In this document: piece by piece, positions 72 through 30,247 of the stretch
Layout: every line of letters begins with the position of its first letter
How positions within the stretch are numbered: the stretch's first letter is position 1
From: a virus
IMG/VR virus record: IMGVR_UViG_3300001533_002564
Location: 1-64,000 of that record
DNA length: 64,000 nt
Strand: one strand, 5' to 3'
The notes under the pieces: model-generated
Databases searched by the model: none
What the model was told of the DNA's origin: nothing
The model's input: the letters and a program-made list of their open reading frames with translations, nothing else
Position numbers and translations under genes: made by a program

Positions 72-146
72 TGCGGAAGATGAAGGATTTGAACCCCCGA
101 CCTAATGGTTAACAGCCACTTGCTCTACCAACTGAGCTATCGGTGC
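72..146 (-). pseudogene. Chimeric/degenerate tRNA-Asn(GTT)
   Basis: Normal D arm, anticodon loop CTGTTAA and T arm. The 5' acceptor strand GCACCGA does not pair with the 3' strand ATCTTCC-G, which resembles a tRNA-Ser 3' end. Confidence 0.65.
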
Positions 147-388: not shown

Positions 389-473
389 TGCGGAGAATAA
401 AGGAATCGAACCCTCGCCCCGAAGGACGGCACGGATTTCAAGTCCGCTTATCCACCATTGGATGCTACTCTCC
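389..473 (-). tRNA. tRNA-Ser(TGA)
   Basis: GGAGAGT/ATTCTCC-G acceptor, GCGGA-CTTGAAA-TCCGT anticodon arm, long variable arm, TTCGATT T loop. Confidence 0.9.
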
Positions 474-561: not shown

Positions 562-641
562 TGGTTGGGATGATGGGAATTGAACCCACATGTAACCAAT
601 TACTCTTTCTACACGTTATCAGCGTGAGGAGATACATCCCA
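562..641 (-). tRNA. Non-canonical tRNA-Ile(GAT)-like gene (no standard D arm)
   Basis: TGGGATG/CATCCCA-A-CCA acceptor, CACG-CTGATAA-CGTG anticodon hairpin, T arm; a GTAA-TTGG-TTAC hairpin lies 3' of the anticodon arm. Confidence 0.6.
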
Positions 642-1205
642 ATGTTCTTCATAATGTAATTCTCTATGACAATTTGAACATAATAAATCACATTTATCTA
701 ATTCAATCATAATCTTTAACCAACTCAAATTTTGATATTTTGAAACACTAAATTCTTTTTCATTTGGGTCTCGATGGTGAAAATCTAATGCTGCGATACA
801 TTTATTGTAACCACATTTCATACATTTACCTCCTAAATATTCAACACTCATTTCTTTTAATTTTTGTCGTCGGGATTTTACTCTTTCATAATTTCTTTTT
901 CGCCTTTCAATTTCATTTAACACAATTCTTTTATTTTCAGTATTTGCAATCACTGTTGTTCTTGACACATTAAATTTTTCTGCTGTTTCGAGAATAGTAT
1001 GTTTCTTATAATATTCATTTAATTCAATAATCTCTTTTTCATTTAATATTTTTCTACCATCAATTGGTTCATTTAATCCAGCACTAATGCAATGATATGA
1101 AACAGTAGGTTTTGATATACTTAATTGTTTACTTATTTCATTATAACTTTTCCCTAAAAGTCTTAATCTTATTACTTTATCTTTTGTTTTCATACTTTCG
1201 ACCAT
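609..1205 (-). CDS. HNH homing endonuclease with N-terminal HTH
   Basis: CMKCGY...LDFHHRDP...LLCSNCHRELH; stop overlaps the tRNA-Ile-like gene. Confidence 0.85.
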   Translation of the reverse strand: MVESMKTKDKVIRLRLLGKSYNEISKQLSISKPTVSYHCISAGLNEPIDGRKILNEKEIIELNEYYKKHTILETAEKFNVSRTTVIANTENKRIVLNEIERRKRNYERVKSRRQKLKEMSVEYLGGKCMKCGYNKCIAALDFHHRDPNEKEFSVSKYQNLSWLKIMIELDKCDLLCSNCHRELHYEEHWDVSPHADNV

Positions 1206-1296
1206 ATTATTATCTTATTATTTATAATAAATATTCGAAAGTTAGAAAATATTATTAATATTTGTCGCAAAAATAGTAAATATTTGAGACAAATTG

Positions 1297-1371
1297 AGCA
1301 CGTAGAGGGATTCGAACCCCCGATTGTACGCTTTTGCAGAGCGTTGCCTTTGACCACTCGACCATACGTGC
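1297..1371 (-). tRNA. tRNA-Cys(GCA)
   Basis: Canonical cloverleaf, ACGCT-CTGCAAA-AGCGT. Confidence 0.93.
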
Positions 1372-1448: not shown

Positions 1449-1469
1449 CCAACATGTCAAAGAACTATA
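1449..1469 (-). promoter_or_regulatory. boxA-like antitermination element
   Basis: TATAGTTCTTTGACATGTTGG, identical 21-mer at 26817-26837; resembles rRNA-operon boxA. Confidence 0.65.
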
Positions 1470-1481
1470 ATAATTATTCAT

Positions 1482-1514
1482 AAAAAAACCCGAAACTTTT
1501 TAGGTTTCGGGTTT
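1482..1514 (-). terminator. Attenuator terminator 1
   Basis: AAACCCGAAAC / GTTTCGGGTTT stem plus U-tract. Confidence 0.85.
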
Positions 1515-1537
1515 GTGTTTTTATTGTGGTATTTTAT

Positions 1538-1666
1538 TTATATTCTAATATCCATTAAACCTTCACCCGAATCCATATTTCTGCCAAAATTTGAACAGAA
1601 TATACCATTCCCGTTACGACTAATAGTCGTTGTCGAAATAATAATATTTGTAATTCGTGTTTTCAT
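1538..1666 (-). CDS. Leader peptide 1, MKTRITNIIISTTTISRNGNGIFCSNFGRNMDSGEGLMDIRI (42 aa)
   Basis: Hand-translated; lies between promoter and terminator; contains TTCGGGT (1565-1571), complementary to the terminator 5' arm. Confidence 0.75.
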   Translation of the reverse strand: MKTRITNIIISTTTISRNGNGIFCSNFGRNMDSGEGLMDIRI

Positions 1667-1710
1667 TTTTATATGTTTATTAATTTAATTGTAAATATCT
1701 TTTATCTAAA

Positions 1711-1737
1711 TACGAGACAAAGATATAAAATGTTACA
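1711..1737 (-). promoter_or_regulatory. Composite promoter: TGTAAC-N17-CGTA with nested Bacteroidota -7 TATCTTTG
   Basis: Near-identical copy at 27079-27105. Confidence 0.65.
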
Positions 1738-1755
1738 ATATAAACAAATTATTTT

Positions 1756-3013: not shown

Positions 3014-4324
3014 TCATTTATTTTCAAAATATTTTTCTTTAATATTAATTGCTGCATTTAAATCAGCGTTCATTGTATGACCACATATAACACAAATAAA
3101 TTTTGATTGTGTTTGTCTATTTAATTTATTAGTATGACCACATTTTGAACATTTTTGTGATGTATGTTTAGGGTTAACAGTTACAACATTTTTACCGACA
3201 TATTCTGCTTTATATTGCATTTTAGTCCTCAATGAATATAAACCAACATCACTAAGAACCCGATTTAAATTACTTTTATTATTTGATTTACCTTTTCCAC
3301 TTCTTTTCATCATACCTTTTAAATTCAAATCTTCAAGAATATAAGTATCTACATCTTCTAATTCAATTAATGATTTTGAGATACAATGCTGTATATAATC
3401 ACGTTTTTCAGTTATTTTAAAATAAAGATTATTTATTTTTTTCTTAATTCTTTTATATGATGTAGTTTCCCAGAAATTAATGTCGGTTTTATTTTTTTTA
3501 TGATAATCTCTTTTTCTATTTAATATTTTTGATAATCGGTGTAATTCAGATTTATATTGTTTTAATAATGATATGGAATTTTTATAAATATCAATATTAA
3601 AATGTAATTCATCTGATGTTGTAATTGGTCTATGAACACCGAAATCAATACCAACACTAGTTTTTTTATCTATTGGTTTTTTTGTTTCAATAATTAATTT
3701 ATTTGGGTCATTTACATCACATTGTAATGATATAAAATATTTATCATTTTTTCTAGAAATCGTATATGAATTAATTTTAATAAATTTATTATTATCCCAA
3801 TTTTCAGAAAAAAAATGATTATGACATGATATTTTAATTTTTTTTATTTTAGGTATATCAATTAATCCAAATTTATTATTCAATAATTTTAAATTAAATG
3901 TTTTAGGTTTATTTTCATTATATTGTATTTGTCCTGTAAATGAATGTTTTGATTTTTGATTTTTAAATTTAGGAAATCCACTTCCCATTTTTTTTATATT
4001 AGCAAACGCTTTTTCAATAGCTTTTAAACTATATGTTTTACTTGTTGAGTCAATATTTTTTAAAAACCAAAATTCATCTGTATTTCCCATTTGAGTTAAA
4101 ATTTTACTCATTTCATATCTATTAAAATACAGGTTATTATCTTTCATATATTTATTACGTTCTTTTTTATCAACAATACCTATTTCAGTCATTTTATCTG
4201 AAATATCAATTTGTTGTCTTAAGCAATAATTATAAATAAATCTTGAAGTTCTAAATGAATCATCAAATGATTTAATTTGTTCGGGTGTTGGGTATATTCT
4301 AAACTTAAATGCTTTAGATATCAT
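3014..4324 (-). CDS. tnpB: TnpB/Cas12f-like RNA-guided nuclease (436 aa)
   Basis: AFKFRIYPT N-terminus, RuvC-I VGIDFG, RuvC-II LEDL, zinc ribbon CSKC/CVIC, RuvC-III NADLNAA; no tnpA nearby. Confidence 0.9.
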   Translation of the reverse strand: MISKAFKFRIYPTPEQIKSFDDSFRTSRFIYNYCLRQQIDISDKMTEIGIVDKKERNKYMKDNNLYFNRYEMSKILTQMGNTDEFWFLKNIDSTSKTYSLKAIEKAFANIKKMGSGFPKFKNQKSKHSFTGQIQYNENKPKTFNLKLLNNKFGLIDIPKIKKIKISCHNHFFSENWDNNKFIKINSYTISRKNDKYFISLQCDVNDPNKLIIETKKPIDKKTSVGIDFGVHRPITTSDELHFNIDIYKNSISLLKQYKSELHRLSKILNRKRDYHKKNKTDINFWETTSYKRIKKKINNLYFKITEKRDYIQHCISKSLIELEDVDTYILEDLNLKGMMKRSGKGKSNNKSNLNRVLSDVGLYSLRTKMQYKAEYVGKNVVTVNPKHTSQKCSKCGHTNKLNRQTQSKFICVICGHTMNADLNAAINIKEKYFENK

Positions 4325-4381: not shown

Positions 4382-6652
4382 TTAGATTTTTTCTTCTTTT
4401 TCGGCTAAATTAAAAGTAAAGTCTAAGTCTTTACCATCGAAATTTACAGATAAAGTATTTTCATCAAAACTCTTGAATTCAGTAAACCATTTTTTACTAA
4501 GAATCAACGAGAATTTAATTTCAGCAATTTCTTGCAATACTTTTCTCCTTTGTTTATTAAGGATTTTTGATTTAGTTTCAAGATATGTTTTTAAAACATT
4601 CTTTTGTTGTTCTTCGCTAAGTGATTTATACATATCAGAATCTAATTGAGAAAGATATTTCTTAATTGCATCTGCCATAACAAATTCATTAAGTTTTAAT
4701 GCAGCACCAGACTCAATTTTCTTAACAACGTCTTCAACTTTTGGAAGACTGGATAATCCTTTAATTTTTGTTTCAAGAACAACTGACATATAAAAATCTG
4801 TTGCTTCTGCGCTTGTAACTTTAGGTGAGAATCCATTGTAATCGGTAATTCCAATCTCTTTAAGCCAATCTGCTGCATCTTGTCCAACCAATTTAACAAA
4901 CGAATCACTTGTTTTTGGAAATAATGATTTCTTGTAGTAATCATAAACTTTCTTAGTACCTTGTAACTTCTTGAGTTCCCATTGTTGTTTAGCAAGTTGC
5001 ATTGCAGAAATACTTTTTACCATACTTTTATTAATAATTGGAATTGAAGTCAAGTCAATAACAATTTTTGTATCTTCACTTGGTGGTACTGGTACTGAAC
5101 TTCTCCATAAATCATATTTAATACCATTATTAAATAAATGTGCAACTAATTCATCGGAATAACTTACTGGAAGTTTTTCAATGTTTACAATACCATCTTT
5201 TATAATTGTAAAAGTATTATATTTAAAAGATGCAACATTATCAATACCGAATTTATTTTCTGGTAGAATCGCCTGACCTTCAATATAAATTCTTACACTA
5301 AGATTTGCTCTACTTTCATTCCATACTAAATCAGTTAATGGATAACCTCTATTGGGGTTGGTATTAATAAATTCAACATCGACTTTCTTTTCAGCAAGTT
5401 CGGCAGTTATTTTACTTAATTCTTCAACATTTTTTGCTTCACTAAGTCTTTTTTTATCGGCTTCAGTAATTGTTGACCCAACAATAACTTTTTTTCTACC
5501 TATTCTATTGTAATTAAATTCTTCATGATTTGGATAGAATAAACAGTTTTCAATATTACCTAAATCTTCAATAAGATTCATTAGACAATAAGCATCATCA
5601 GGCACTGGTTGAATGGTTGTTTGACCTTCAGGAAATCTTTTTGCTGTGTCTTCAACACATTCTTTAATTGCTGTTTTAAATGCATTTAGTTTTTGTTTAC
5701 CAAAAGCATTAACAAGCATTTTGTAATGATATTGATCACCTAATGCATAAAATATTTTTTCGGCATCTTCATTTAATAATTTATCTGAAAGAACGTAGAT
5801 TGCTGCATAAAGAGCACGTATAACACTATTAGTAAATTCAATAGTAATGCCAATTGCATTAAATGAAAAGAAATGTATTTCTTTAACATCAGAACCAACC
5901 ATTATTTTACCATCAGTAATATTATACAATAATACTGAACCATCACTCACACTAAATGCGAAATCATATAAATAACTATCGTTAATTTCAACAACATTTT
6001 TCTTTCCACCACGAGCACTATTTGATATTTTGGCATCGAACATTGGTTCGAAATCATCGAAACCATTACAACTAATTTTTTCACCACCAATAATACTTGC
6101 CATTTCAGTTAATCTACGTGAGTCAGCATAATAACCATATTCAACAAATGTTGAAGATGATATGTCATTCTCCATTCCTTTAAGTGTTGTAATGACTTCA
6201 TTCCAAGGACAGTCATTATTATAACCATCGGTAAGGAAAATCATTGAAAATACTGAGTCTGGTCTGTTATTTTGGATTCTTTTAATTAATCCATCGACTA
6301 ATTGGAGTGGTTTTAAGAATGCAGTTAATCCAACAGGACGAAGCCATTTATCAATAGCATCATTTAAATCGCTAAGTGTTTTTAAGGATTTAACTTCAAC
6401 TTCTTCTTTAAGAATTCCAGCATCTCTACTACCAGAAAACCATACTATAGAAATAGTATCACCTTCCATCATTAAGTTGGAAAGTTTGTTTTTTAATTGT
6501 GTTCGGATTAAAGGAAGTTCATAATACATTGAACCAGATACGTCAACTACGAAGATGTGATTTGTTTTTTTTGTAACCTCTACTGTTACATCGCTATTTA
6601 CTTCTTGAGTAGTGAGAAAATAGTTTTCACTAAATTTTACATTTGTTTTCAT
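4382..6652 (-). CDS. vWA (MIDAS) domain protein
   Basis: FVVDVSGSM ... IFLTDG. Confidence 0.8.
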   Translation of the reverse strand: MKTNVKFSENYFLTTQEVNSDVTVEVTKKTNHIFVVDVSGSMYYELPLIRTQLKNKLSNLMMEGDTISIVWFSGSRDAGILKEEVEVKSLKTLSDLNDAIDKWLRPVGLTAFLKPLQLVDGLIKRIQNNRPDSVFSMIFLTDGYNNDCPWNEVITTLKGMENDISSSTFVEYGYYADSRRLTEMASIIGGEKISCNGFDDFEPMFDAKISNSARGGKKNVVEINDSYLYDFAFSVSDGSVLLYNITDGKIMVGSDVKEIHFFSFNAIGITIEFTNSVIRALYAAIYVLSDKLLNEDAEKIFYALGDQYHYKMLVNAFGKQKLNAFKTAIKECVEDTAKRFPEGQTTIQPVPDDAYCLMNLIEDLGNIENCLFYPNHEEFNYNRIGRKKVIVGSTITEADKKRLSEAKNVEELSKITAELAEKKVDVEFINTNPNRGYPLTDLVWNESRANLSVRIYIEGQAILPENKFGIDNVASFKYNTFTIIKDGIVNIEKLPVSYSDELVAHLFNNGIKYDLWRSSVPVPPSEDTKIVIDLTSIPIINKSMVKSISAMQLAKQQWELKKLQGTKKVYDYYKKSLFPKTSDSFVKLVGQDAADWLKEIGITDYNGFSPKVTSAEATDFYMSVVLETKIKGLSSLPKVEDVVKKIESGAALKLNEFVMADAIKKYLSQLDSDMYKSLSEEQQKNVLKTYLETKSKILNKQRRKVLQEIAEIKFSLILSKKWFTEFKSFDENTLSVNFDGKDLDFTFNLAEKEEKI

Positions 6653-7031: not shown

Positions 7032-10000
7032 TTATCCACATTTACTATTTCCACATCCCATACAAATAAGACATCCTTCTTTGTATTGTAGGTCATTACT
7101 GCCACATACAGGACAAGTGCCTTTACCTTTTTCACCGTCTTTAATATATCTTTTAATGACACGAGTAACACCATTTTTCCAAGTATTAATATAATCTTCT
7201 TTAAAATTTAATGAATCAATTAATTCAAAAACATATACTAATGGCATTTTATGTCTTAATACCCCAGAAATAAATTTAGCATAATTCCAGAATTCGGGAT
7301 TAAATGCGTGGTTTAGTCCAGTAAAAATATGTTTATCTCCTTGTGAATCAATATATTCAATATCATATCGTTTTCTTTTTACTTTAACTATTTTACCATC
7401 AATAAGTTCATCTATTTCAATAATATTTTTTACAACTTCACATTCAGTAATTAATGGAGGTAGTGAACTTAAACCATTTTCAAGACGACCAGTAAAAATT
7501 TCGTATGGATGACCATCTTTTAATCCAACAACAGCAATCCATTTTTCAAGTTTATTTTGAAAACGATGTATTTCTGCTTTTAATCTTTTTCCTCTTTTGG
7601 GTGCATGAACTTCTTCAATTGCCACTTCTTTTTTCTCATTATTAGATATTAGAACACCACTTCTACTACCTTCACGATAAACAGTCATTCCTTTACAACC
7701 AGCACTCCATCCAGTTTCATATACTTGACGAACTAAATCTTCAGTTGCTTCTTCGGGTAAATTAACTGTCACACTAATACTATGGTCAACATGTTTTTGT
7801 ATTCTACCTTGCATTTCAACTTTCTTAACCCAATCAACATCATTTGAAGTAGCTTTATAATAAGGTGATTTTTTTACTATTTCATCAACTTGTTCTTCTG
7901 TCATTGTTTTAACAATATCAACATCATAATCATTTGCTTTTAACCATGTTTTAAAGTTGTTATGGAAGACAAGATATTCTTTCCATGCAATTCCTTCTTC
8001 ATCAACAAAATCTATTTGAATATCTTTTTCTTGTGGATTAATTTTTCTTCTTCTTTTATAAACAGGTAAGAAAACAGGTTCAATTCCTGATGTTGTCTGT
8101 GTCATTAAACTTGCAGTACCTGTAGGTGCTATTGTTAATAATGCAATATTTCTACGACCATATTTAACCATGTCTGCATATAGTTCAGGATTTGCTTCTT
8201 TTATACGTAAAATAAATGGATTATTCTTTTCTCTTTTAGCGTCATAAATTGGAAATGCTCCACGTTCTTTTGCTAATATAACCGATGATTTATATGCATT
8301 TAATTTTAAATTTTCATGTACTTTTTCACTAAAATCATTTACACTATCAGTCCCATATGTAAGACTTAATGCTGCAAGCATGTCACCTTCAGCAGTAACA
8401 CCTAAACCAGTTCTTCTGCCTTCAATTGCTTTTTCTCTGATTTTAGTCCATAAATTAATTTCATATAATTTAATGAATTCATCTTCAGGGTCTAATTTAA
8501 TTTTAGCTAGAATATTATCAATTTTTTCTAATTCTAAATCAATAATATCATCCATATAACGCATAGCAATAATTACATCATTTTTAAATAAATCCCAATC
8601 AAAATAAGAATCAGAAGTAAATGGATTAACAACATATCCGTACAAATTAAGTGCAAGTAATCTACAACTATCATATGGACATAAAGGTATTTCACCACAA
8701 TTGTGCACACTAATTCCATTGCAATCAAATTCATGTGCAATATCAACATTACAATCATAAACATCTTCAACACCTACTAATTTTATTGATTTAATTGAAT
8801 CAGTGAAATATTCTTTATATAAACCACGCTTTAAATTATTTAATACATTATCTAATTTTGTTTGTTTATTAACGTCCTTAAAACCAATACGTTTATTAAA
8901 AACCAATAAATTTTCTTTAGATATTACTAACTCATGTTGTGCTTTTACATTATATTCTTTTTTACCACCATTACCATCAGGTAACATTTTTTTACTGTCT
9001 AATCTCCTATTTTTAAATATTGATGAGACGATACCTAACCTTAGTAACATTCTTTGAATAACTTCCAGATTATTAAGATTAGATGAAGATAGTCTAACAT
9101 TAATACCCTTTTTACTATTATTTAATACTGTACCATCAGCATCTAATATTCCTGAAATAAAACCACGATAAAAATCAGAACTTTGTGATTCAATTGCATA
9201 ACCTAAATTCTTACCGTCAAACAATCCTAAATCATTTGCTATTCTACCTAATGGATTTGATTTAACAGTAATTATTTCATTATTATCGTCACCACTACCA
9301 AGACTATCGTTATAATTCAATGATGTTTTAATTAAATCAACAGCAATTTTTTTCATTGTTGCTCGATTTTCACCCCAATATCTTAAATATGCAGTTTCAT
9401 TTACTAGAGAACCATCACCAACTAATGAACCAATTAACCAACCAATTTTATCATCGTAATTACTATCCCATGAAGATTTTAAATTTTGGTTTTTATTATA
9501 ATTTAAATTAAGTACGTCACCTTCAATCAAATCACCTAACTCAACCCATTCATATGATTTTTTTCCTCGATTTTGTTTAATAACCCTTTTAAACTTATGA
9601 TTATCAGTAGCTTTTATCTTTAAACCACGATTAGTTTCAACTTCATAAACCTTTTTATCTCCAGTATAGAAAAAACCGCCTTTTGATAAATATTGCTCGT
9701 TATCAACCAGTGCAGTAAAATCTTTACCAATTAATTCATTAACTTGTTTCGGTCCTTCATTTGTCATCACCCAAGAATCACTTGTAACACAAGGATTAGT
9801 ACTTGTTGTTTTAAATCCTAAGTCAGCATAACAATCAGGAATACTTTCAGAGATTACTTTATCCCAGAAAAGAATACCGGGTTCGCCTGATTTCCATGCA
9901 TTATGTATTATTTTTTTCCAAAGTTTTGTTGGGTCAATTTCTTTTATGATTTTAGGATTATCGCTATCAATTGGATATTTTTGTTCAAAAGCATACTCAT

Positions 10001-10688
10001 ATTTTGCAGCTTTCATAAATTCATCAGTTAATCTTACTGAAACGTTAGCACCAGTAACTTTACCTTCACTCATTTTTGCATCAATAAAATCTTCAGCATC
10101 AGGATGATTAATTGAAACACTTAACATTAATGCGCCTCTTCGACCATCTTGTGCTACTTCTTTTGTACTATTTGAATATCTTTCCATAAAAGGAACAATT
10201 CCAGTACTTGTTATCGCACTATTTTTTACTGGACTTCCTTTAGGACGAATAAATGACAGGTCTTGTCCTACTCCACCTCGTCTTTTTTGAAGTTGAACCA
10301 TATCTTGATCGAGTTTCATAATTCCACCATAACTATCACTGTCTTTATTATTTCCAATTACAAAACAATTAGATAGTGATATTATTTGAAAATTATTACC
10401 AATACCAGACATCGAACCACCTTGTGGAACAATTCTTTTAAAATTTTTAATTGTTTTATAAATTTCTTTTGCAGATAATGCATTAGGATATTTAGCTTCG
10501 ATTCTCGCAAATTCTTTTGCTAATCTCCTATGCATATTATCTGGGGATAATTCATAATAATTATTATCGTCTTTTAAACAATATTTTTTTATCCAGACAT
10601 CTGTAGCTAATTGGTCGTTATTAAAATAAGTTAATGTTGCTTCTTCAACTTGTTCTTTTGTATAAGTTTTTTTGGTTTTTTCTATCAT
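7032..10688 (-). CDS. nrdJ: Class II (B12-dependent) ribonucleotide reductase with intein
   Basis: SLSNCFV, RRGA, TNPC/GEIPL, APTGT, KGMTVYR, C-terminal zinc ribbon. Confidence 0.93.
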   Translation of the reverse strand: MIEKTKKTYTKEQVEEATLTYFNNDQLATDVWIKKYCLKDDNNYYELSPDNMHRRLAKEFARIEAKYPNALSAKEIYKTIKNFKRIVPQGGSMSGIGNNFQIISLSNCFVIGNNKDSDSYGGIMKLDQDMVQLQKRRGGVGQDLSFIRPKGSPVKNSAITSTGIVPFMERYSNSTKEVAQDGRRGALMLSVSINHPDAEDFIDAKMSEGKVTGANVSVRLTDEFMKAAKYEYAFEQKYPIDSDNPKIIKEIDPTKLWKKIIHNAWKSGEPGILFWDKVISESIPDCYADLGFKTTSTNPCVTSDSWVMTNEGPKQVNELIGKDFTALVDNEQYLSKGGFFYTGDKKVYEVETNRGLKIKATDNHKFKRVIKQNRGKKSYEWVELGDLIEGDVLNLNYNKNQNLKSSWDSNYDDKIGWLIGSLVGDGSLVNETAYLRYWGENRATMKKIAVDLIKTSLNYNDSLGSGDDNNEIITVKSNPLGRIANDLGLFDGKNLGYAIESQSSDFYRGFISGILDADGTVLNNSKKGINVRLSSSNLNNLEVIQRMLLRLGIVSSIFKNRRLDSKKMLPDGNGGKKEYNVKAQHELVISKENLLVFNKRIGFKDVNKQTKLDNVLNNLKRGLYKEYFTDSIKSIKLVGVEDVYDCNVDIAHEFDCNGISVHNCGEIPLCPYDSCRLLALNLYGYVVNPFTSDSYFDWDLFKNDVIIAMRYMDDIIDLELEKIDNILAKIKLDPEDEFIKLYEINLWTKIREKAIEGRRTGLGVTAEGDMLAALSLTYGTDSVNDFSEKVHENLKLNAYKSSVILAKERGAFPIYDAKREKNNPFILRIKEANPELYADMVKYGRRNIALLTIAPTGTASLMTQTTSGIEPVFLPVYKRRRKINPQEKDIQIDFVDEEGIAWKEYLVFHNNFKTWLKANDYDVDIVKTMTEEQVDEIVKKSPYYKATSNDVDWVKKVEMQGRIQKHVDHSISVTVNLPEEATEDLVRQVYETGWSAGCKGMTVYREGSRSGVLISNNEKKEVAIEEVHAPKRGKRLKAEIHRFQNKLEKWIAVVGLKDGHPYEIFTGRLENGLSSLPPLITECEVVKNIIEIDELIDGKIVKVKRKRYDIEYIDSQGDKHIFTGLNHAFNPEFWNYAKFISGVLRHKMPLVYVFELIDSLNFKEDYINTWKNGVTRVIKRYIKDGEKGKGTCPVCGSNDLQYKEGCLICMGCGNSKCG
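8700..9791 (-). mobile_element. LAGLIDADG intein in NrdJ (364 aa) at the active-site NPC
   Basis: TNP|CVTSDSW...ATDNH...GSLVGDG...GILDADG...SVHN|CGEIPL. Confidence 0.93.
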
Positions 10689-13029: not shown

Positions 13030-13102
13030 TGACCCCTGTGAGGCTCGAACTCACGACCCATGCCTTAAAAGGGCATTGCTCTACCAACTGAGCTAAGAGG
13101 TC
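13030..13102 (-). tRNA. tRNA-Lys(TTT)
   Basis: Canonical, ATGCC-CTTTTAA-GGCAT. Confidence 0.93.
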
Positions 13103-13121
13103 AATTTCACATTGGATGTTA

Positions 13122-13206
13122 TTCATTATACGGGACTCGAACCCGTGCGCAAGGATTAAGGATAGCATGTGCGTTTCCTTTGCTCTACCAACTGAGCTAC
13201 TAATGC
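13122..13206 (-). pseudogene. tRNA-like gene with expanded anticodon loop (possibly Lys-CTT-derived)
   Basis: Canonical D and T arms; AAGGA-(20 nt ending CCTTAA)-TCCTT. Confidence 0.5.
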
Positions 13207-13686: not shown

Positions 13687-14769
13687 TTACACATCATCAT
13701 AACCATTACTAAATGGTTTACTATATTTTGGTCTAATCATTTTCCAAATAATATCTGCATATGGTCTTTTATCATATAATTTAAATAAAATTGCACGATA
13801 ATTTGATTGTTTTGCTTGTTCAGCAAACTCAGTACGGTTACTTATGTCATTAATATGATAAATTCTTACAAATTCCAATAATGATTGTCTTTCAGTTTCA
13901 TTATATTGATTTTGTAGTTTATTTATTGTTCTTTTTAACCAATCATAAAATTCATCAGGAACTCTATCAAATAACCCATCAAAATCATAATTATTTTTCA
14001 AATGTTCCCAAACAATTACATTAGAAACATTTGTTAATATACCATGCAATCTAACATATTCATTAAACTTAACTTTAACTCTAAATCCATTAAAAAATCT
14101 AATTACAAAACCTTCTTTATTTTCTTCTTCAAGTGCTTTAAGTTCAGTTAAATTTTCAATATTCTTAATTTTATGTCTTTTTACAATGGTAAATAATTTT
14201 GAATATTGTGCAACCATATCGTCATAATATTGTTCAAAACCTGTTTCCGTATTAATTACTGATAATAAAATTAAGTCATACATATCACCATAATCAACAA
14301 CAATCCTGTTTTCAGGATAAATTATTTCAAATAAATAAGTATTATTTTCGTCAAATTTATCATAAGTATTTACATTAAGCATCTTTTTTGCTTCGATTGC
14401 TTGTTCTGAAATAAATGAACCTCTTGATGCAATAATCCAAACCATACGTGGTTTATAGTAGAATAATATAATTAAAGAACCATCCATTTTTTCAAAAATA
14501 TCATAATCTTGTGATAAATCAATTTCTGTTGAATCATGTTCTTCAATATTCTTGAATTTCTGGAATGGACGAGCTAATATATTACCATCAATATCAACAA
14601 CCATTCCACGACAAGACATAGTATATTCATCCCAAAACTTCTTTGATTGTGCTTTAGGACTATAATTAAGTATCCACATATCGTATTCTAGATGTTTATT
14701 TGCTATAATTAAATTATTATCAATATAATGATTTAATTTTTCCCAATTTAATTTTTTTAACATTTTCAT
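13687..14769 (-). CDS. T4 Rnl1-like RNA ligase
   Basis: CRGMV, PFQKFKN, EKMDGS (motif I), ASRGSF, EGFVI, VKVK. Confidence 0.88.
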   Translation of the reverse strand: MKMLKKLNWEKLNHYIDNNLIIANKHLEYDMWILNYSPKAQSKKFWDEYTMSCRGMVVDIDGNILARPFQKFKNIEEHDSTEIDLSQDYDIFEKMDGSLIILFYYKPRMVWIIASRGSFISEQAIEAKKMLNVNTYDKFDENNTYLFEIIYPENRIVVDYGDMYDLILLSVINTETGFEQYYDDMVAQYSKLFTIVKRHKIKNIENLTELKALEEENKEGFVIRFFNGFRVKVKFNEYVRLHGILTNVSNVIVWEHLKNNYDFDGLFDRVPDEFYDWLKRTINKLQNQYNETERQSLLEFVRIYHINDISNRTEFAEQAKQSNYRAILFKLYDKRPYADIIWKMIRPKYSKPFSNGYDDV

Positions 14770-24115: not shown

Positions 24116-24206
24116 ATGAAGTGCTACGCCACCTTGCACCATCCCGTTTAAGAATCACCAGAAACGAGCAGGAATCGAACCAGTTAAGAACTATTGCAAT
24201 AAGTTG

Positions 24207-24293
24207 TACCCACAGATGGATTCGAACCACCGTTATACTACTCGCCTCTTCCTTGTAAGGGAAGTGCTCTTAACCTGACTGAGCTATGTGGGC
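24207..24293 (-). tRNA. tRNA-Val(TAC) with enlarged variable region
   Basis: CTTCC-CTTACAA-GGAAG. Confidence 0.8.
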
Positions 24294-30104: not shown

Positions 30105-30163
30105 ATTTTTATGCACTCCAGAACTCATAAACATACTTTATGAGTCCCAGAACTCATATTTTG

Positions 30164-30247
30164 CTGACCCCGTGGGACTCGAACCCACAAACCTTTACGG
30201 CATCTGCTTCAAAGACAGACGTGTTTAGCCAATTCCACCAAAGGTCA
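30164..30247 (-). tRNA. tRNA with TTG (Gln) anticodon on a Leu-type class II body
   Basis: TCTGT-CTTTGAA-GCAGA, variable arm TGCCGTAAAGGT, U1-A72, G73. Confidence 0.8.

Follow-up and report, generated by a model that had tools for sequence, protein, structure and literature searches.

The 64,000 nucleotides (nt) analysed here, referred to as the window, are bases 1-64000 of a single linear virus contig of 104,188 bases (IMG/VR record IMGVR_UViG_3300001533_002564). This contig has 26% G+C and no terminal overlap and, since CheckV rates it 32% complete, belongs to a genome of roughly 325 kilobases (kb). On its minus strand, near the left end, a small open reading frame (ORF), hereafter leader 1, lies between a promoter-like element and an intrinsic terminator and precedes a block of transfer RNA (tRNA) genes. 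We found that the amino acids encoded by this ORF correspond to the tRNAs of the block, and that the unit probably works as a leader-peptide attenuator of the tRNA genes. Its parts are as follows.

1707-1748, minus strand: promoter-like element found by motif search, with TTTG at 1748-1745, a 19-nt spacer, TATCTTTG at 1725-1718 and GTATTTA at 1713-1707
1666-1538, minus strand: leader 1 ORF, 42 codons from an ATG start, followed by TAA at 1540-1538
1660-1577, minus strand: predicted sensor stretch, codons 3-30 by reading of the ORF
1617-1629, minus strand: hairpin A within the ORF (CGAC...GTCG), RNAalifold columns 120-123 x 132-135, also seen in the single-sequence fold
1581-1598, minus strand: hairpin B within the ORF (CTGTT...GGCAG), just 5' of region 2, RNAalifold columns 154-158 x 173-177, also seen in single-sequence folds
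1571-1565, minus strand: region 2, putative antiterminator strand TTCGGGT (ORF nt 96-102), an exact complement of part of the terminator 5' arm
1482-1514, minus strand: intrinsic terminator, a stem of 11 pairs (5 G-C) with a loop of 7 nt, whose T-run extends to 1482
1514-1504 and 1496-1486, minus strand: 5' arm (region 3) and 3' arm (region 4) of the terminator stem 1514-1486
1449-1465, minus strand: boxA-like motif GTTCTTTGACATGTTGG, found by motif search between the terminator and the first tRNA gene

It had been predicted from an earlier inspection of this DNA that codons 3-30 of leader 1 specify only Thr, Arg, Ile, Asn, Ser, Gly, Phe and Cys, and this is true of all 28 codons. Synonymous codons are well represented (three each for Thr, Arg, Ser and Gly, and two each for Ile, Asn and Phe). 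In all six frames of the contig, no longer run of these eight amino acids was found. The next runs comprise 25 and 23 codons, one of them inside an ordinary long ORF, and the 28-codon run alone is therefore weak evidence. The shorter runs count in favor of a different explanation, according to which the terminator is an ordinary, leaky or constitutive one, the ORF has no regulatory role, the tRNAs are made by unregulated read-through or from internal promoters, and the match between leader and block reflects AT-rich codon bias. We regard this explanation as unlikely, and several of the findings described below speak against it. The same inspection had called the start of the ORF ThrL-like. A resemblance of style is present, whereas no Rfam leader family was found at E ≤ 1 in a cmscan of positions 1-1800; neither Thr_leader nor the other enterobacterial leader families matched. 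A T-box was likewise not matched, whether the window was scanned at the gathering score or positions 1-1800 at E ≤ 1.

The terminator starts about 24 nt past the leader stop codon and has a fold of -14.5 kcal/mol (z = -4.1). The predicted pairing of TTCGGGT with ACCCGAA of the terminator proved to be an exact 7-nt complement within the 5' arm. When the 3' arm was left out, the minimum-energy fold paired region 2 with region 3 at -14.1 kcal/mol, so that antiterminator and terminator are evenly matched (-14.1 vs -14.5 kcal/mol). Also, because RNA cut before the 3' arm folds in this way, the antiterminator can form first. There are 20 terminator-like hairpins on the two strands of the 104-kb contig, and an exact complement of at least 7 nt to the 5' arm, located 15-75 nt upstream, was found for only four of them (1514, 13439, 26882 and 31509). 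These four are exactly the hairpins that head tRNA blocks, and the other 16 have complements of no more than 5 nt. Such confinement to the heads of tRNA blocks is not what would be expected of ordinary transcription stops.

The other three of these hairpins belong to sister units, named below by the amino acids in which their ORFs are rich, each of which has a promoter-like motif, an ORF of 24-30 codons, a terminator and, within the ORF, a complement to the terminator 5' arm.

13554-13462, minus strand: Lys/Tyr leader, heading two tRNA-Lys genes and a tRNA-Tyr gene
Minus strand: Leu/Asp/Met/Val/Ala/Trp/Glu leader, heading Asp, Glu, Val, Leu, Ala and Trp tRNA genes, a transfer-messenger RNA (tmRNA) gene, and Leu and Met tRNA genes
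Minus strand: Gln/Pro/His leader, heading Pro, His-like, Pro, Gln and Gln tRNA genes

Taken together, the four leader/block sets include all 20 amino acids with no overlap. To evaluate the match, whole peptides of the four leaders of the window, minus the initiator Met, were scored against their blocks, and the 20 amino acids were then reassigned among blocks in 200,000 shuffles. We found that 74 of 120 leader residues belonged to the set of their own block, whereas the shuffles had a mean of 32 (standard deviation 7) and a maximum of 65, and none of the 200,000 reached 74. Leader 1 considered singly had 34 of 41 residues in the set, and only 15 of 125,970 possible eight-amino-acid sets do as well. 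A four-way match of this extent is difficult to reconcile with codon bias in front of an ordinary terminator.

The block behind leader 1 contains the following genes on this contig, where 25 tRNA-model matches and the tmRNA are all located on the minus strand between 82 and 31283.

1296-1371, minus strand: tRNA-Cys(GCA), first gene of the block (ARAGORN; 57.9 bits with the Rfam tRNA model)
609-1205, minus strand: ORF of 198 amino acids inside the block, with helix-turn-helix domains and an HNH-like Cys/His C-terminus (DNA matches to annotated phage HNH endonucleases)
565-641, minus strand: tRNA-Ile(GAT)-like gene without a D arm and with an 18-nt insertion in the variable region (Rfam 32.8 bits; no ARAGORN call)
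391-473, minus strand: tRNA-Ser(TGA) with a long variable arm (31.2 bits with the Rfam tRNA model, 39.2 bits with the tRNA-Sec model; anticodon from the alignment)
82-139, minus strand: tRNA-Asn(GTT)-like gene, covering model positions 8-63 only, with unpaired acceptor strands

The Cys, Ile, Ser and Asn tRNA genes that had been reported after the leader were thus all matched, but the Ile and Asn copies look defective. The Ile-like, Ser and Asn-like genes were detected by the Rfam tRNA model only. The Asn(GTT)-like gene is probably a pseudogene or chimera; Asn tRNAs of related phages have pairing acceptor strands, and a second Asn gene is usual further down their block. The 3' end of the HNH-type ORF overlaps the Ile(GAT)-like tRNA (641-565), and the endonuclease insertion may have damaged or remodelled that gene. 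Relative L030 carries the same HNH-type insertion (84.6% nucleotide identity), and ARAGORN called no Ile tRNA there. Elsewhere on the contig, several minus-strand tRNA genes are paired, with one copy of unusual length: an 88-nt Val gene at 24206-24293, an 85-nt Gln gene at 30163-30247 and an 85-nt tRNA-like gene without an assignment at 13122-13206, located before the two Lys genes. These long copies may carry insertions or be diverging duplicates.

The original prediction noted that Thr, Arg, Gly and Phe tRNA genes are missing from the window and expected them to the left of position 1. They are indeed missing, and none was found on the whole 104,188-base contig. Because position 1 of the window is base 1 of the contig, anything to the left of it is off the assembly. 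Logan contigs with an exact match, from two aquatic/freshwater-sediment runs of the source samples, run 431 and 677 letters beyond position 1, and the DNA therefore continues to the left. No RNA run containing this sequence was found. Words taken from 231-260 and 22-53, searched in JGI metagenome contigs, had no exact match. For comparison we used 39 IMG/VR loci, on contigs of up to 365 kb, which were identified via an Rnl1-type RNA ligase (13687-14769) and a VWA protein (4382-6652), and three more contigs found with a DNA word from the leader core. Their tRNAs were called with ARAGORN; many of the loci end early at contig or flank limits. In IMG/VR, neither a TnpB-like protein nor the exact sequence of the terminator was matched, and blastn against INPHARED phages gave distant matches to HNH and ribonucleotide reductase genes only, with no close relative.

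In the relatives, the block is typically arranged as (Thr-GGT), Cys, Asn, Ile, Ser, Phe and Gly, with variations, followed by Ile-TAT, Asn, Thr, three or four Arg genes (TCT/CCT/TCG/ACG) and Gly-GCC. Phe, Gly, Thr and Arg genes were all present behind Cys in 15 non-redundant loci, that is, in every relative with enough sequence. Among 21 non-redundant instances of the block, Cys was found in 19, Ser in 18, Gly in 17, Thr, Phe and Asn in 16 each, Ile in 15 and Arg in 12. The only additional genes were a tRNA with a CAT anticodon in five instances and one Pro tRNA. The former is probably tRNA-Ile2, because it is placed where other loci carry Ile-TAT. Thus, the tRNA set of this block in relatives is exactly the eight-amino-acid set of leader 1. 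Since the block of the relatives was established independently of the leader, this identity argues against the view that the leader composition is a by-product of codon bias. The sister units are also conserved in relatives, each heading the same block (Lys/Tyr; Ala, Asp, Glu, Val, Leu, Trp and Met with tmRNA; and Pro, Gln and His). A tRNA with a CTA anticodon, designated Pyl by ARAGORN, was observed in L029, L031, L032 and L039 and not found on this contig; it could be an amber suppressor.

Homologues of leader 1 were detected by tblastn in 21 non-redundant IMG/VR loci of 320-365-kb phages, reaching relatives whose VWA protein is only 64% identical. In L031 (VWA protein 56%), a similar unit missed by tblastn heads the block. 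From the conserved ATG onward, all 21 loci have an open frame, the other two frames have 1-11 stops each in every sequence, and gaps in the aligned ORFs have lengths divisible by three. Entropies at codon positions 1, 2 and 3 were 0.75, 0.94 and 1.01. Position 2 is nearly as variable as position 3, and so the leader does not look like a protein selected for its sequence. Its N-terminal half is free to vary; most changes are among Thr, Ser, Ile and Asn, all of which have A in the first codon position. The eight-amino-acid set accounts for 582 of 687 sensor codons (85%) in relatives vs 44% of codons in the long ORFs of the contig. Based on the open frame, the codon-position entropies and the share of codons within the set, selection seems to act on the frame and on membership in the codon set, as a decoding sensor would require. 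One relative, L027 (IMGVR_UViG_3300010353_001672), has two leader copies about 880 nt apart (13098-13178 and 13976-14101). The upstream copy stops short after 26 codons and the terminator of the full copy has a weakened T-run; the pair may be a duplication caused by an insertion.

One part of the leader behaves differently. The core SRNGNGIFC, which is followed by Gly-Arg-Asn, is conserved even in nucleotides and coincides with hairpins A and B. Both hairpins are conserved in the RNAalifold consensus of relatives without covariation, the pairs of hairpin A being nearly invariant; they may serve as pause signals. Besides, the fold of the leader as a whole is more stable than that of shuffled sequence (z = -3.2). 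These features would fit a non-coding structured RNA, either a riboregulator that binds a protein or tRNA or a small RNA released at the terminator, in which the reading frame is incidental. We find such an RNA quite improbable, given that the frame remains open in all 21 diverged copies with stops always in the other two frames and indels in threes, and that the N-terminal half varies freely yet keeps within the amino acid set. In addition, no Rfam family was found at threshold. Candidates on 1379-1585 (HDV-like ribozyme, STnc240, BTnc005 and DUF2693 RNA) were all far below their gathering scores and were rejected, and the BTnc005 and STnc240 matches span the terminator only.

The conserved nine-residue core and Gly-Arg-Asn motif could also point to a small peptide that acts in trans, as a regulator or toxin-like product, with a terminator that merely ends its mRNA. 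Some attenuator leader peptides, peTrpL among them, are reportedly active in trans. This possibility appears very unlikely to us: codon position 2 varies as much as position 3, which would not be expected under selection on the peptide sequence, the conserved residues fall on the arms of RNA hairpins, and both the four-way match of leaders to blocks and the antiterminator would be left unexplained.

The attenuator reading receives further support from the pairing strands of the relatives. A segment complementary to the terminator 5' arm is located at ORF nt 95-108 in 21 of 21 loci, and the pairing of region 2 with region 3, 7 base pairs (bp) long in this phage, extends over 6-12 bp in relatives (5 in L023). 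The terminator is kept in all relatives with compensatory changes in its stem. In a MAFFT alignment, the 5' arm was out of register by one or two columns, and covariation was instead examined in an alignment of the three strands anchored on their CGGG/CCCG cores in all 21 loci. Compensatory changes between regions 2 and 3 were evident. For example, region 2 of L026 has CGAG opposite CTCG, while its 3' arm retains CGGG as a G:U pair. In L020, 11-12 contiguous pairs between regions 2 and 3 exceed those of its own terminator, and in L004 the pairing is lengthened by an 8-bp extension with GTGT opposite ACAC. Also, in six of the seven loci with a GAACCCG-type arm, a C in region 2 tracks the G of the 5' arm. 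The mean duplex energy was -16.4 kcal/mol for strands of the same locus vs -12.9 kcal/mol for strands combined across loci, and in 19 of 21 loci the own-locus duplex was more stable than the cross-locus mean. An ordinary terminator behind a non-regulatory ORF would not account for these compensatory changes.

The correspondence between leader and block extends to codons. We examined the 13 relatives with at least 10 distinct anticodons in the block, using ORF stretches of equal length from the same locus as a control. Leader codons touch 9-18 of the 10-19 anticodons of the block, whereas control stretches average 5-9.5; examples are 18 of 19 anticodons in L022, 15 of 16 in L020 and 11 of 11 in both L011 and L019. 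P values were ≤0.024 in each of the 13 loci, which are related, so that the tests are not independent.

The elements on either side of the leader recur as well. The motif TATCTTTG-N4-GTATTTA occurs without mismatch at two sites in the 64 kb, in front of leader 1 and of leader 3 (27093-27075), with 0.24 expected by chance, and it is also found upstream of the leader in relatives. TTTG together with TATCTTTG may correspond to the Bacteroidota promoter consensus, TTTG/TAnnTTTG, and the element at 1748-1707 is a putative promoter of the leader transcript. Following the terminator, GTTCTTTGACATGTTGG occurs in identical form behind the leader 3 terminator (26833-26817; chance expectation 0.19), and variants of it follow the terminators of most relatives. 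Its GTTCTTTGACA... has a putative likeness to the boxA of rrn operons. A boxA-like site would suit a long untranslated operon.

Four sequence features of a leader-peptide attenuator were found here: a leader ORF, matched codons, an intrinsic terminator and an alternative antiterminator pairing. The original prediction had placed these parts where we find them, and their conservation with compensatory changes in 21 relatives supports it. We therefore consider it likely that the unit is a multivalent, ribosome-dependent leader-peptide transcription attenuator which gates a phage tRNA operon. From the sequence we infer that the ORF is translated, where its promoter lies, in which direction the switch works and what triggers it physiologically. 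In this model, RNA polymerase would start near 1707 at the promoter-like element, and a ribosome would load on the 42-codon leader, whose sensor codons would sample the eight amino acids, and nearly all isoacceptor codon classes, of the downstream block. If the sampled tRNAs are plentiful, the ribosome would run over and past region 2 toward the stop codon (1540-1538) while regions 3 and 4 are being made; with such fast decoding the terminator (1514-1486) would form, and polymerase would halt before the tRNAs, leaving the block off. Scarcity or lack of charging of any one of these tRNAs would instead stall the ribosome within codons 3 to about 27, with region 2 free. Region 2 could then capture the 5' arm as it is made, and polymerase would read through the boxA-like site into the tRNA block. 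One switch for eight amino acids would amount to a logical OR and, because the product is the sensed molecule, it would provide direct negative feedback on tRNA supply.

Several observations weigh against this model. Region 2 lies 25 nt before the stop codon, and a ribosome waiting at that codon would occupy the stretch between regions 2 and 3 and leave region 2 itself uncovered, so that the off state would have to be explained sterically or kinetically. A conserved 1:2 anti-antiterminator was not found; region 2 is paired with codons 3-5 in the single-sequence fold, and this pairing is absent from the consensus fold of relatives. The 7-bp pairing of this phage is short, and its own-locus duplex (-14.3 kcal/mol) is close to the cross-locus mean (-13.7 kcal/mol). 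With regard to codons, 15% of sensor codons in relatives are outside the eight-amino-acid set, and codon conservation may partly reflect RNA structure because the core overlaps two conserved hairpins. Fine-scale co-evolution of codons and tRNAs (ACT/ACC with Thr-GGT, AGG with Arg-CCT) showed no clear pattern; for example, ACT/ACC codons occur with or without Thr(GGT) in the block. Finally, the gap between the terminator and tRNA-Cys is 111 nt in this phage, where an internal promoter is possible. This gap also favors the view of an ordinary terminator with an unregulated block, as does a sigma-70-style scan, in which promoter-like hexamers appeared at chance frequency throughout. In relatives, however, the first tRNA usually begins 14-44 nt past the T-run, a distance too short for it to have a promoter of its own, which counts against that view.

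A ribosome stalled at one of the last three or four sensor codons would sit on region 2 and thereby favor the terminator, a further difficulty for the model and a point in favor of the opposite logic, in which efficient translation of the leader is needed for read-through, by shielding from Rho or by loading of a boxA complex, and stalling terminates. The boxA-like site after the terminator would agree with this scheme, as would the downstream RNA, which is untranslated and would be Rho-sensitive. On the other hand, region 2 is placed, and pairs with the 5' arm through compensatory changes, as the classical design in which stalling gives read-through requires, and a supply of fewer tRNAs under slow decoding has no evident benefit. 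We judge the opposite logic to be highly improbable and retain the attenuator in which stalling opens the block.

If so, the virus would measure decoding speed codon by codon and supply exactly the tRNAs in short supply, by means of a compact, portable sensor of tRNA availability. This would help explain how giant phages control large tRNA sets. Also, the composition of a leader would predict the content of the operon behind it, and this signature correctly foretold that the block of relatives has Phe, Gly, Thr and Arg genes. As a more tentative suggestion, which we think is possible rather than likely, the four attenuators may form a single translation-surveillance circuit, in which any shortfall of a host tRNA switches on the matching phage block. 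Shortfalls could arise from a mismatch of codon usage at a late stage of infection or be caused by anticodon nucleases with which the host defends itself. Such a circuit would be a self-regulating counter-defence for tRNA supply, conserved in a clade of 320-365-kb freshwater and sediment phages, and the design may bear on the arms race with tRNA-cleaving defence systems. The gene for a T4 Rnl1-type RNA ligase (13687-14769, minus strand) is located directly upstream of the Lys/Tyr leader and outside the gated blocks. T4 Rnl1 repairs tRNA-Lys cut by the PrrC anticodon nuclease, and the position of the ligase gene beside the Lys/Tyr leader hints at a context of tRNA damage.

Additional features were observed in the vicinity of leader 1. 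An array of clustered regularly interspaced short palindromic repeats (CRISPR) at 2182-2745 of the window (minus strand) consists of nine 36-nt repeats with 30-nt spacers and a period of 66. It adjoins a gene for a 436-amino-acid protein (3014-4324, minus strand) with Cas12f1-like TNB, OrfB_IS605 and HTH_OrfB domains, and the two may constitute a compact phage-borne type V or TnpB-like system. This insert is located between the VWA gene and leader 1. The site is empty in most relatives; for example, the leader of L015 comes directly after the VWA gene. Further along the window, the gene for the large subunit of ribonucleotide reductase (7032-10688, minus strand) is split by an intein with a LAGLIDADG domain (Pfam).

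Leader-peptide attenuation, a textbook mechanism, is established for operons of amino acid biosynthesis and a few synthetase genes. In a full-text literature search, no published case of leader-peptide or trp-operon-style control of tRNA genes was found. Among enterobacterial multivalent attenuators, thrL senses Thr and Ile, and ilvL senses Ile, Val and Leu. Leader 1 is similar to them in that a short leader rich in regulatory codons is followed by an intrinsic terminator with an upstream competitor for its 5' arm, and in that a single leader would sense more than one amino acid. Its N-terminus and Gly-Asn-Gly stretch also resemble thrL. In contrast to thrL and ilvL, the element is phage-borne and the regulated genes are tRNAs rather than biosynthetic enzymes. 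The leader would sample eight amino acids in about 15 isoacceptor classes, mostly one to three times each, and has no long runs of one or two codons; Rfam gave no Thr, His, Leu or Trp leader match, and no conserved 1:2 hairpin was found. The pheM leader of E. coli pheST represents attenuation of an aminoacyl-tRNA synthetase gene in response to the supply of charged tRNA. Here too, leader-peptide attenuation would be applied to a component of the translation apparatus, but in pheM a protein gene is regulated and one amino acid is sensed, whereas the product in this phage would be the sensed tRNA itself.

T-box riboswitches likewise key attenuation to tRNA status through a choice between terminator and antiterminator. 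A T-box binds uncharged tRNA directly, via its specifier codon and T-box bulge, and needs no ORF. The unit described here, unlike a T-box, has a conserved open reading frame, and no T-box match was found. Also, as in antitermination of rRNA operons by boxA and Nus factors, a putative boxA-like motif heads a long untranslated transcript, with the difference that the motif is located downstream of the attenuator and not of the promoter.

The nearest published case is the trn array of Anabaena sp. PCC 7120, which is controlled by a repressor. This operon is a silent array of supernumerary tRNAs that is induced when translation is impaired, with rtcB co-regulated (PMC8421152), and its control is exerted by the repressor TrcR, which acts on direct repeats over the -10 box (PMC8421152, PMC10272220). 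The words "leader" and "attenuat" are absent from both papers. The two systems share a tRNA array and an RNA ligase gene, which is the co-regulated rtcB in Anabaena and, in this phage, a gene of the Rnl1 type located beside the Lys/Tyr block. They differ in that control of the phage tRNAs would be exerted in cis, would be codon-specific and would be separate for each block.

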